From a virus (lineage: Duplodnaviria > Heunggongvirae > Uroviricota > Caudoviricetes), in the IMG/VR virus record IMGVR_UViG_2617270974_000006: 4,861 bases of DNA, one strand, 5' to 3'. The notes beneath the pieces are model-generated. The model was not told the DNA's origin and searched no databases. It saw only the letters and a program-made list of their open reading frames with translations. The position numbers and the translations under genes were made by a program. This document shows, one piece after another, positions 443 through 4,861 of the stretch. How positions within the stretch are numbered: position 1 is the stretch's first letter; each line of letters starts with the position of its first letter.

Positions 443-550
443 GCGATTTTCGCCGAAGATAACGACATAATACTTGTGTTTCTCAAAAAATATGGATAAG
501 ATTTTCTCAACGATGGGGCTTGTGTATCTATCGTTGAACAATTTTTACGA

Positions 551-573
551 CCTCGCTATTGCGAGGTTTTTTT
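551..573 (+). terminator. Rho-independent terminator, tR'-like, downstream of Q
   Basis: Seen directly: stem CCTCGC (551-556), loop TATT, stem GCGAGG (561-566), then a 7-T run (567-573) and a second T run at 578-584. Lying about 110 bp after the Q stop, it matches the position of lambda tR'. Confidence 0.6.
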
Positions 574-610
574 ATGGTTTTTTTCTATTCAATCTACATC
601 AAAATCAATG

Positions 611-619
611 TGTTATAAT
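611..619 (+). promoter_or_regulatory. Extended -10 promoter element (TGnTATAAT) for the cargo cassette
   Basis: Seen directly: TGTTATAAT at 611-619, a perfect extended -10, about 38 bp upstream of the ATG at 657. No good -35 hexamer at 16-18 bp spacing, which extended -10 promoters tolerate. Downstream of the terminator at 551-573. Confidence 0.45.
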
Positions 620-656
620 GTTTTCTGTAAAACAACATTAAAGACAGGAGAACATT

Positions 657-926
657 ATGAAACTGACCTCTATCCATCTTGAAATACTACGTCGAGTGAA
701 TGAATTGCAGCCAAAGGATTCTAGAATTCAGGCTGCATCATTACCTCATCTCTCAGCAAAAGAGGTTAATTTTGCTATTTCAGATCTTGCTGATATAGGT
801 TTTATCGATGTTATACGAAGCAAATCTGCCGAAGGTGGATTGATTGCTAATGAGATAACGTCAAAAGGTTTTGCTTTTTTGAGTGAGATTGGCGCTGAAA
901 AAAATTCATCGATGAGCACTCATTGA
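657..926 (+). CDS. Hypothetical small protein (89 aa), predicted winged helix-turn-helix-like
   Basis: ATG at 657 with AGGAG at 646-650 (6-nt spacer), stop TGA at 924-926. AT-rich codon usage unlike the flanking phage genes. The pattern helix (IHLEILRRVNEL), helix (AKEVNFAISDLADIGFI), hairpin (DVIRSKS...LIANEITSKG), helix is compatible with a winged HTH. Fold assignment is inference from the primary sequence. Confidence 0.7.
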   Translation: MKLTSIHLEILRRVNELQPKDSRIQAASLPHLSAKEVNFAISDLADIGFIDVIRSKSAEGGLIANEITSKGFAFLSEIGAEKNSSMSTH

Positions 927-940
927 TTTCTGCTTCAATC

Positions 941-958
941 GGCTGCCAATTGGCAGCC
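941..958. repeat. Perfect 18-bp palindrome GGCTGCCAATTGGCAGCC (7-bp arms, AATT centre)
   Basis: Seen directly. It lies 15 bp after the stop of the 89-aa gene and is not followed by a T tract. A 15/18-identical copy (GGCTGCCAAATGGTGGCC) recurs at 1964-1981. Confidence 0.6.
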
Positions 959-1123
959 TAAACTGTAAAGTGAATTTAAAATCGCCTACAATTGATGCTT
1001 AAATTTTGTTCTGTATCATCTGCAGGTTTAGGGATATCACAGTAGCTTTCTGACAAGAAGAGTTCTTTTCTTCTACCAATGAAGTGGTTATGTTAACCTG
1101 CGCCAAATCGAGACTGGTGCGGA

Positions 1124-1930
1124 GTGGAATCGAAAGTGTCATATTTTTACAGAAGCAAGAATATTTCAGGTGTTTCTATAAATGAAGATAGCTTGATTAG
1201 CTTAAGCACGGCAATTGTCGAACGCTGCGTTAAAATGAATGAGCAAGCTCAAAAGGAAAGTAGGGAAGTTTGTGCTCAATGTGTTTTTTTTATTTTGTTC
1301 GATGGTAAGGGGTATAAAGTTGATTCTATCGGTGAGCTTGTGAAATACTTTAGACAGGCCACTAGGATTGATCAAATAATTTTTACTATTGAAACTTATC
1401 AAAGTCGACAGTCTAACAGGATGAATGGATCTTGGATGGAGCTACGAATTGATGAGAGGAATTCAAATAGCAGCACAATGATTGTAGCATCGGAAGATAA
1501 TGAGTGGGTTGACTCGTTATGGATTACGATTCAGGATTTACTTAACAAGTGCAAAAATAAATTTAGATTTTTTAGAACAGCTTGGACTATGTTAAGTATC
1601 CAGATTTCAGGTGTGACAGTTGGCTTTTTGCTTAGCTTATGGACAGCCTCAAAACTGGCGCCAAAACTATCAATCGATGGTGCATTTGCTTTATCATTTA
1701 TTTGTATCTTTATTTTGTTTTCGAACTTATGGAGCTTTGCTATTCCATTAATAATTAAGCTTATCGACTTTTTGTTTCCTAGTGTTAAGTTTGTTATTAA
1801 TGGTAAAAATTACTTTCACTGGAGTGTCCAGGCTATAATTGGAGCGATTGCCAGTGCGGTTATATTGTATTTTATTAGCTCCATGTTGCTTTTTGCATTA
1901 GAAATGTTAAATAGCATCATTAAGAAATAG
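1124..1930 (+). CDS. Hypothetical membrane protein (268 aa as drawn): soluble N-terminal domain plus three C-terminal TM helices
   Basis: ORF 1124-1930, stop TAG 1928-1930, strongly AT-rich. Hydrophobic segments WTMLSIQISGVTVGFLLSLWTA, GAFALSFICIFILFSNLWSFAIPLII and AIIGAIASAVILYFISSMLLFALEML suggest three TM helices in the last ~110 residues. No catalytic motif recognised in the N-terminal ~150 aa. The start is uncertain: GTG 1124, GTG 1136 (GGAG at 1121-1124) or ATG about 1234. Confidence 0.7.
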   Translation: MESKVSYFYRSKNISGVSINEDSLISLSTAIVERCVKMNEQAQKESREVCAQCVFFILFDGKGYKVDSIGELVKYFRQATRIDQIIFTIETYQSRQSNRMNGSWMELRIDERNSNSSTMIVASEDNEWVDSLWITIQDLLNKCKNKFRFFRTAWTMLSIQISGVTVGFLLSLWTASKLAPKLSIDGAFALSFICIFILFSNLWSFAIPLIIKLIDFLFPSVKFVINGKNYFHWSVQAIIGAIASAVILYFISSMLLFALEMLNSIIKK

Positions 1931-1963
1931 TTAATGAATTAGTTATAATTACATCAATTCTAT

Positions 1964-1987
1964 GGCTGCCAAATGGTGGCCTTTTTT
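1964..1987 (+). terminator. Candidate intrinsic terminator closing the cargo cassette
   Basis: Seen directly: GGCTGCC (1964-1970), loop AAAT, GGTGGCC (1975-1981) gives a 7-bp stem with two G-U wobble pairs, followed by TTTTTT (1982-1987). It lies 34 bp after the stop of the membrane-protein gene. Confidence 0.5.
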
Positions 1988-2425: not shown

Positions 2426-2693
2426 CCCGACAGCAACTATTAATGCGCTGTTATGTGCTTGTGTTGTTATTACTCTGATGTTTTATCGTCGTGGTGATTC
2501 GCGGCATCGTCCGTGGGTTTCACGTTTAGCCTGGCTGATTACTGTTACATACAGTGCTGTTCCGTTGGCCTATCTCTGTGGGATTTATCCCCATTCCTCA
2601 TGGCCCATTATCGTGGCGAACACTATTTTTCTTTCCGTGCTGGTGGCTGTCAGAGGCAACGTTGCACGTCTGGTTGATCATCTGAGGCACTAA
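2412..2693 (+). CDS. Second small membrane protein of the lysis cassette (93 aa), holin or antiholin-like
   Basis: GTG at 2412 preceded by GGGAGG (2401-2406, 5-nt spacer), overlapping the end of the previous gene by 14 nt. Two to three hydrophobic segments. Its stop TAA overlaps the endolysin ATG as TAATG at 2691-2695. Function inferred from position only. Confidence 0.5.
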   Translation: MELNDPTATINALLCACVVITLMFYRRGDSRHRPWVSRLAWLITVTYSAVPLAYLCGIYPHSSWPIIVANTIFLSVLVAVRGNVARLVDHLRH

Positions 2694-3303
2694 TGAACCA
2701 ACAATTATTTCAAAAGGCGGCTGGTATTAGCGCCGGGCTGGCTGCGCGCTGGTTTCCGCACATTGATGCGGCGATGAAGGAATTCGGCATTACAGTACCA
2801 GCGGATCAGGCAATGTTTATCGCTCAGGTAGGCCATGAGTCGATGGGGTTTAGCGCCGTAGTTGAAAATTTTAACTACACACCATCTGCGCTTGTGGCGA
2901 CGTTCGGAAAGAGGATCACACAGCAGCAGGCTGATGCCCTTGGCAGAACATCCGGACATGCAGCTCGTCAGGATGCTATTGCCAATCTGGTGTATAGCAA
3001 CCGACTGGGTAACAAAGCACCAGGTGATGGCTGGAAATATCGTGGTAGAGGATTAATTCAAATCACTGGCCTCCATAATTATCGCATCTGTGGCGCGGCG
3101 CTGAAGTTAGATCTGGTGACTTCACCTGAACAACTGGAACAGGAGCTACAGGCCGCGCGCTCAGCTGCATGGTTCTACACCTCTAAAGGTTGCATGGTCT
3201 ACGGTGCCGATATTAATCGTGTTACGCGCATCATTAACGGCGGTCTGAACGGTATTGAGGATCGTAAGGTTCGATACAACAAGGCGCGGGCGGCGCTGCT
3301 GGT

Positions 3304-3307
<4 letters not shown>
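2693..3307 (+). CDS. Endolysin, glycoside hydrolase family 19 (chitinase-like lysozyme)
   Basis: 204 aa. The N-terminal region resembles phage GH19 endolysins as recalled from Salmonella and E. coli phages, with two Glu nine residues apart (E49 in GHES and E58 in VVENF by my count) as candidate catalytic acid and base. GAGG RBS at 2684-2687. Sits between the holin-like genes and the Rz-like gene. Confidence 0.85.

Positions 3308-4861
<1,554 letters not shown>

Follow-up and report, generated by a model that had tools for sequence, protein, structure and literature searches.

A predicted winged-helix protein encoded by a moron-like unit between the antiterminator and holin genes of Escherichia coli lambdoid prophages

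The short open reading frame at positions 657 to 926 of the stretch of DNA analyzed here (4,861 nucleotides, hereafter the window) is a real gene, and its product is predicted to adopt a winged helix–turn–helix (wHTH) fold. Our analyses indicate that this gene, gene 1, is an independent moron rather than a conserved partner of the membrane-protein gene, gene 2, that follows it in the window; we assign these statements together a probability of roughly 0.85 to 0.9. The fuller reading of gene 1 as an autonomous wHTH moron whose product also binds DNA and regulates its own promoter has, taken as a whole, slightly less than an even chance of being correct (about 0.45).

The window corresponds to the part of an E. 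coli lambdoid prophage that is devoted to late control and lysis; there, the Q antiterminator gene is followed by a lambda-like pR′ promoter and tR′ terminator, gene 1, gene 2, the holin genes, and the endolysin gene. The genes and other large elements of the window are as follows:

1–442: 3′ end of the Q antiterminator gene, with its stop codon at 440–442 (Pfam Antiterm, PF03589, E 7e-31)
657–926, plus strand: gene 1, ATG start, encoding a winged-helix protein of 89 aa with a C-terminal helix (PHROG 32916)
1136–1930, plus strand: gene 2, encoding a membrane protein of 264 aa; its GTG start is backed by PGAP and by the N termini of homologues
2039–2425: holin 1 (Phage_holin_8)
2412–2693: holin 2 (Phage_holin_3_7)
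2693–3307: GH19 endolysin
3304–3633: spanin-like open reading frame, 109 aa
About 3650–4861: IS3-family element beginning just 3′ of the spanin-like open reading frame, with orfA at 3690–4001 and then orfB

Of 5,426 complete E. coli genomes, 41 contain positions 440–2040 of the window with an identity of at least 99%, on the chromosome in every case, and the prophage that carries these positions has an e14-type integrase, lambdoid early genes, and a contractile tail. The genes 3′ of the endolysin differ in other copies of the prophage. A strong Rfam match to isrC (150 bits) at 3686–3808 is part of the IS3-family element. Rfam and tRNA scans of positions 443–1135 found no RNA gene; matches to AbsR28 and Leu-leader over the tR′ region were far below threshold and were rejected.

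Between the Q stop codon and gene 1 lie two sets of signals, one of the lambda late type and one belonging to gene 1:

474–502, plus strand: lambda-like late promoter pR′, 32 nt past the Q stop codon, with −35 TTGTGT (474–479), a 17-nt spacer, and −10 TAAGAT (497–502)
509–518, plus strand: AACGATGGGG, the counterpart of lambda AACGATGGG, located 6 nt 3′ of the −10 in both
549–585, plus strand: tR′-like intrinsic terminator with an 8-bp stem, a 4-nt loop, and T-runs, called by the terminator scan (−13.7 kcal/mol, z −5.2)
589–619, plus strand: promoter block TCAATCTACATCAAAATCAATGTGTTATAAT, a candidate operator, which contains the extended −10 TGTTATAAT
646–650, plus strand: ribosome-binding site AGGAG, 6 nt 5′ of the gene 1 ATG

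The layout of the first set is identical to that of lambda pR′ (J02459), which consists of TTGACT, 17 nt, TAAATT, 6 nt, and the element named above, which we take to be the promoter-proximal pause element of lambda. This likeness, together with the position directly after a PF03589 Q gene, points to a pR′ role for 474–502. The TAACGATGGG sequence is retained in the loci of the Citrobacter lineage as well. The tR′-like terminator closes a short pR′ leader and marks where the add-on module begins on the left; every related locus has a counterpart in the corresponding position. We considered and rejected the possibility that the extended −10 is pR′ itself, as the lambda-type pR′, its pause-like element, and tR′ all lie upstream, at 474–585. 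Thus, the promoter noted ahead of gene 1 in the earlier reading of this DNA is a separate one.

The second set of signals belongs to a coding gene. RefSeq/PGAP annotates the identical open reading frame (WP_000779379.1), and Shine–Dalgarno-like, purine-rich sequences precede the gene in all homologous loci. The extended −10 at 611–619 is a perfect TGnTATAAT located 37 nt 5′ of the ATG, and in each of the four gene-1 lineages an extended −10, in the form TGTTAYAAT or TGGTAAAAT, is found about 30–40 nt 5′ of the start codon. The G+C content of gene 1 is 0.378, compared with 0.49 for Q and 0.48–0.52 for the holins, endolysin, and spanin. In homologues with 33–60% identity the reading frame is preserved and the length changes little (74–89 aa), and comparison of gene 1 with these lineages gives pN values of 0.24–0.42, pS values of 0.71–0.75, which are saturated, and dN/dS ratios of 0.09–0.20. 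Gene 1 is under purifying selection. The earlier note, made from the letters alone, had described an AT-rich open reading frame with a strong ribosome-binding site directly downstream of an extended −10 promoter, and each of these features is borne out.

The family to which gene 1 belongs is small and was recovered only in part by single-sequence searches. A word-indexed protein search with the gene 1 sequence returned near-identical E. coli copies only, and an exhaustive phmmer search of 1.8 billion representatives added just two true distant relatives. Proteins of 1100–1800 aa with LRR/Cna-B repeats that also appeared in the phmmer output (P0015–P0018 and P0020, with E-values down to 2e-10) proved to be false positives arising from summed weak repeat matches, and a scan of genome contigs with the first gene 1 alignment confirmed nothing. 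Profile searching, in contrast to the single-sequence searches, yielded about 40 clusters, all of 44–89 aa, with full-length members of 74–89 aa; those with a named organism come from E. coli, Citrobacter, and Klebsiella. Among cultured phages, megablast gave no match and a protein-level search found two Klebsiella phages. These clusters define a small uncharacterized family that is carried by prophages of the three genera in promoter–gene–terminator units.

The genomic setting of the family is constant. In 19 of 19 distinct loci the order is Q, tR′, the gene's own extended −10, the gene, a terminator, and a holin gene, with the gene located about 150–215 bp past the antiterminator gene and about 100–250 bp before the holin gene, except that gene 2 intervenes in the E. 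coli lineage. The antiterminators at these loci are of three families (PF03589, PF06323, and DUF1133, the last also matching PF06530), and the lysis cassettes that follow are of three kinds. In the Citrobacter, Klebsiella, and metagenomic prophages the homologue lies directly between Q and the holin gene with no membrane-protein gene beside it. The description of gene 1 as the first gene of a cassette therefore does not hold, since outside the E. coli lineage it sits alone in this interval.

This arrangement corresponds to that of a moron, an autonomous promoter–gene–terminator unit, a concept that arose from the comparative genomics of HK97 and HK022. Lambdoid morons carry their own promoter and terminator, lie between conserved phage modules, and are patchily present, and the gene 1 unit shares all of these traits. 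Indeed, four lineages conserve the extended −10, every relative has an intrinsic terminator behind the gene, the G+C content departs from that of the neighboring lysis genes, and sister phages with the holin_8 cassette hold other cargo in the same slot. We thus regard the gene 1 unit as a moron in the Q-to-holin cargo slot, with a promoter whose activity is predicted from its sequence. The products known from morons of the Q-to-S interval are toxins, tRNAs, porins, and cold-shock proteins; the gene 1 moron differs from these in that its predicted product is a small winged-helix protein.

The earlier note had proposed that gene 1 encodes a regulator, a sensor, or an antitoxin-like partner of the membrane effector downstream, the two forming a defense or toxin cassette. 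We consider this very improbable. In its favor, the two genes never occur apart within the E. coli lineage, being neighbors in 41 of 5,426 complete genomes and in all contexts sampled, and a hairpin lacking a T-run between them suggests cotranscription. However, this co-occurrence is confined to the one lineage, and gene 2 is absent from 18 of the 18 distinct gene-1 loci of other lineages. Gene 2 likewise exists without gene 1. Its homologues (34–79% identity) are located directly upstream of holin genes, mostly behind an N6_N4 DNA methyltransferase gene, and tblastn and hmmsearch detected no gene 1 relatives at any of 12 other gene-2 loci. Because gene 2 homologues occur without gene 1, the membrane protein is tolerated in its absence and needs no antidote. 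Co-occurrence across diverged homologues, by which a two-gene defense or toxin–antitoxin system would be recognized, is not seen in either direction.

Broken copies of gene 2 point the same way. In two E. coli genomes (GCA_900603045.1 and ERZ27273576) gene 2 is called as a truncated product of 164 aa while gene 1 is 100% identical; alignment of the first of these traces its truncation to an 11-bp deletion at about positions 1431–1441 of the window. In addition, PADLOC-DB v2 HMMs gave no match at E ≤ 1 for the product of gene 1 or gene 2. The separate distributions, together with an intact gene 1 beside a frameshifted gene 2, indicate that the two are independent modules, and that gene 1 does not serve gene 2 as a conserved regulator or as an antidote. 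Their adjacency in one lineage is thus not a two-gene system, which corrects a tempting over-reading. The predicted structure of the gene 2 protein (pLDDT 71) has an α/β domain of about 140 aa at the N terminus and three long helices at the C terminus. At the DNA level, the window is homologous to the other gene-2 loci from 1087 to 2039 only; we also considered whether 927–1135 is a remnant of the methyltransferase gene and rejected this, as the homology begins at 1087, past the stop codon of that gene.

How the two genes came to be neighbors can be read from the hairpins that flank gene 2:

941–958, plus strand: stem-loop GGCTGCCAATTGGCAGCC, the terminator stem of the gene-1 family minus its T-run (−15.7 kcal/mol, z −4.8)
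959–1963, plus strand: inserted DNA of about 1 kb, specific to the E. coli lineage, comprising a spacer (959–1086) and gene 2
1964–1987, plus strand: second hairpin copy GGCTGCCAAATGGTGGCC with a T-run, found by the terminator scan and by folding, and near-identical to the terminator and holin leader of locus L067

In relatives, gene 1 is followed by GGCTGCC-N4-GGYGGCC and a T-run (TTTT(T)), and then by the holin region. Locus L067 (positions 2741–2850) shows this in uninterrupted form, with gene 1, the hairpin, the T-run, and holin_8 in succession and a leader nearly identical to positions 1982–2041 of the window. The first hairpin of the window was not called by the terminator scan. As the hairpin is duplicated, its first copy lacks the T-run, and L067 is uninterrupted, the DNA at 959–1963 was inserted at the hairpin, and the gene 1/gene 2 junction reads as a recombination scar with a duplicated hairpin. 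This scar is a further argument against a partnership, a model that the distribution of the two genes already largely refutes. The insertion removed the T-run from behind gene 1, such that transcription from the 611–619 promoter likely reads on into gene 2, and transcription of the gene 1 and gene 2 unit is now predicted to end at the hairpin at 1964–1987, ahead of the holin gene. Gene 2 arrived with the insertion in the E. coli lineage, and its probable cotranscription with gene 1 would be an accident of recombination. The palindromes at 941–958 and 1964–1981 had been put forward as binding sites for the gene 1 protein. They are instead two copies of the family terminator stem and hence not obvious operators; what looked like operator palindromes is a terminator duplicated and left behind by recombination. 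The spacer at 959–1086, which is 128 bp long and AT-rich, is confined to the 41 E. coli genomes noted above and holds a weak sigma-70-like match, TTGATG-16-TATCAT, at 992–1019, which could serve gene 2.

The earlier note had also deduced, from residue patterning, a helix, helix–turn–helix, β-hairpin, and helix layout for the gene 1 protein, and had suggested structure prediction and a fold comparison as the check. We carried out both, and the layout stands. The AlphaFold2 model, obtained from a three-sequence alignment, has a mean pLDDT of 82 and a pTM of 0.72, and contains a helix at residues 5–15, a strand at 24, a short helix at 26–28, a helix at 34–47, strands at 50–54 and 62–67, and a helix at 69–84. 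These elements follow the wHTH order of H1, β1, H2, turn, and H3, with β2 and β3 forming the wing. In a Foldseek search of the PDB, the best 50 matches are all wHTH domains, almost all of them from regulators of the MarR, PadR, or HxlR type, including YodB and QsrR; the activation (N-terminal) domain of T4 MotA ranks 11th. The TM-scores of 0.55–0.68 are accompanied by weak E-values, none below 4e-3, and thus the matches establish the fold of the gene 1 protein but not its family. A fold search against BFVD returned weak, unnamed wHTH matches only. When the profile of the gene-1 family was compared with PDB sequences, the RPC6 winged helix was the best match (E 0.0018), and a MarR protein was also found (E 0.016).

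Assignment to a sequence family is less direct. In Pfam the gene 1 protein matches DUF2513 (PF10711, a wHTH family) with 21.8 bits and an E-value of 2.4e-4, which is below the gathering score of 29.6, and HTH_45 weakly. The DUF2513 match recurs in seven of seven family members scanned, with a best E-value of 3.4e-6, the alignment spans residues 9–78 of 89, and some relatives carry a precomputed PF10711 assignment. These sub-threshold matches suggest a distant outlier of DUF2513 rather than a clear member. To our knowledge, DUF2513 has no known function, so that membership would say nothing on mechanism.

The gene 1 protein shares its topology (H1, β1, H2, H3, the β2–β3 wing, and a C-terminal helix) with the PadR, MarR, and HxlR regulators. 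PadR structures are among its best fold matches, with TM-scores up to 0.68, and short PadR proteins consist, like the gene 1 protein, of a wHTH domain and one C-terminal helix. A MarR-like I-T-x-x-G passage from wing to helix is also present in the family. However, members of the gene-1 family have 79–89 aa compared with about 100–150 aa in these regulators, and a Pfam search gave no match to PadR (PF03551) or MarR. Unlike the palindromic operator of PadR, the conserved promoter block of gene 1 contains no palindrome. MarR proteins, moreover, have about 140–150 aa with N- and C-terminal dimerization helices, whereas the 89-residue gene 1 protein has a single helix on each side of the wHTH, and in an alignment to 3f3x the arginine of the MarR wing motif D-x-R has no counterpart (D-R-R is replaced by d-g-s). 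By length, wing arginine, and Pfam match, then, the gene 1 protein falls outside MarR. A search of NCBIfam was uninformative, PHROGs places gene 1 and gene 2 only in families of unknown function, and literature searches on DUF2513, on WP_000779379.1, and on combinations of Q, holin, moron, and winged helix found nothing relevant. The gene 1 protein belongs to no characterized family.

The strongest lead to the function of gene 1 is the 31-nt promoter block at 589–619, which spans both the −10 and the −35 region. Three Citrobacter sublineages match the E. coli lineage at 29–30 of the 31 nt of the block (94–97%). In the same comparisons the upstream flank is 53–57% identical, the 5′UTR 49–53%, and the coding sequence 62–68%, with synonymous sites saturated and tR′ diverged. 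The block contains TCAA direct repeats at 589, 599, and 605, and it has no dyad symmetry. It accompanies gene 1 behind PF03589 and PF06323 Q genes alike; because it moves with the gene behind two Q families, Q is not its constraint. It is a single-copy sequence, with no further copies found in the prophage or in E. coli genomes, which fits autoregulation.

The protein segment that is most conserved in the family, VNFAISDLA, coincides with the predicted recognition helix. Self-repression at the promoter is typical of small wHTH regulators. This habit, the conserved block, and the conserved recognition helix favor an autoregulating DNA-binding protein. The unit, which is carried by enterobacterial lambdoid prophages, is about 400 bp long and consists of a conserved extended −10 promoter of the sigma-70 type, a ribosome-binding site, a gene of 79–89 codons, and an intrinsic terminator. 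Gene 1 would probably be expressed in the lysogen from its own promoter, and would also be transcribed first in the Q-antiterminated late transcript. In the mechanism that we consider most likely, the protein would dimerize through helix 1 and the C-terminal helix, and the dimer would bind DNA at the 31-nt block and so repress its own promoter; it may in addition act elsewhere, on the host or on competing phages.

Several features count against the DNA-binding reading and leave room for a role in protein binding. The net charge of the family is acidic to neutral (about −1 to −3 by sequence count, with the Klebsiella lineage containing no arginine at all), the predicted recognition helix displays E36, D43, and D46 on its exposed side, the wing arginine is absent, and the block is without a dyad. 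Furthermore, AATCAATGTGTTA at 603–615 is the sole match in the window, on either strand, to the IHF core WATCAANNNNTTR; it overlaps the extended −10, lies within the block, and is retained in the Citrobacter lineages. The host factor IHF could thus account for the conservation of the block. These observations suggest an alternative in which the winged helix is a protein-binding module whose target is a host or phage protein, for instance RNA polymerase or a sigma factor, a repressor, or part of a competing phage, while the block is maintained by a host factor such as IHF. Winged helices that contact proteins are indeed found among the structural and profile neighbors, namely MotA and RPC6. We consider this alternative unlikely, yet serious enough to be weighed, as the fold neighbors are almost all DNA-binding regulators, many acidic MarR and PadR proteins bind DNA nonetheless, and there is no candidate partner, no gene covarying with gene 1 apart from its position.

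As it stands, gene 1 is ordinary prophage cargo that encodes a small wHTH protein, and what sets the family apart is only its tightly constrained promoter block and its unvarying position. It becomes a testable question whether a mini winged-helix protein of a prophage autoregulates or affects the host, the late genes, or competing phages.

The constant position raises the further possibility that the location itself is functional and that gene 1 modulates late transcription or lysis, for example by limiting read-through at tR′, by damping Q-dependent holin transcription in the lysogen, by setting the timing of lysis, or by blocking the late operon of a superinfecting lambdoid phage. In all 19 loci, with their three Q families and three lysis cassettes, gene 1 is invariably the gene next to tR′ and, gene 2 aside, the one that immediately precedes the holin gene, and across lineages the promoter block begins 4–25 nt past the T-run of tR′. 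We nevertheless judge a positional function improbable. The Q-to-holin interval accommodates cargo in general, with methyltransferase genes, gene 2, and other open reading frames located there in sister phages, and stx, tRNA, csp, and porin genes occupy it in other phages. Most lambdoid phages, including lambda, do without such a gene, and the block occurs nowhere else in the prophage. A bolder form of this idea, which we regard as a long shot, is that the gene-1 family is an undescribed, position-locked part of lambdoid late control, in which a winged-helix protein made in the lysogen acts at the tR′ exit. Such a protein might target RNA polymerase or Q-modified complexes, or form a roadblock on the conserved block; if so, it would prevent expression of the lysis genes or disrupt late transcription in superinfecting lambdoid phages. 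With regard to the transcript that ends at tR′, a pR′ leader RNA of about 70 nt is implied in the window; the 6S RNA of lambda is 194 nt long.
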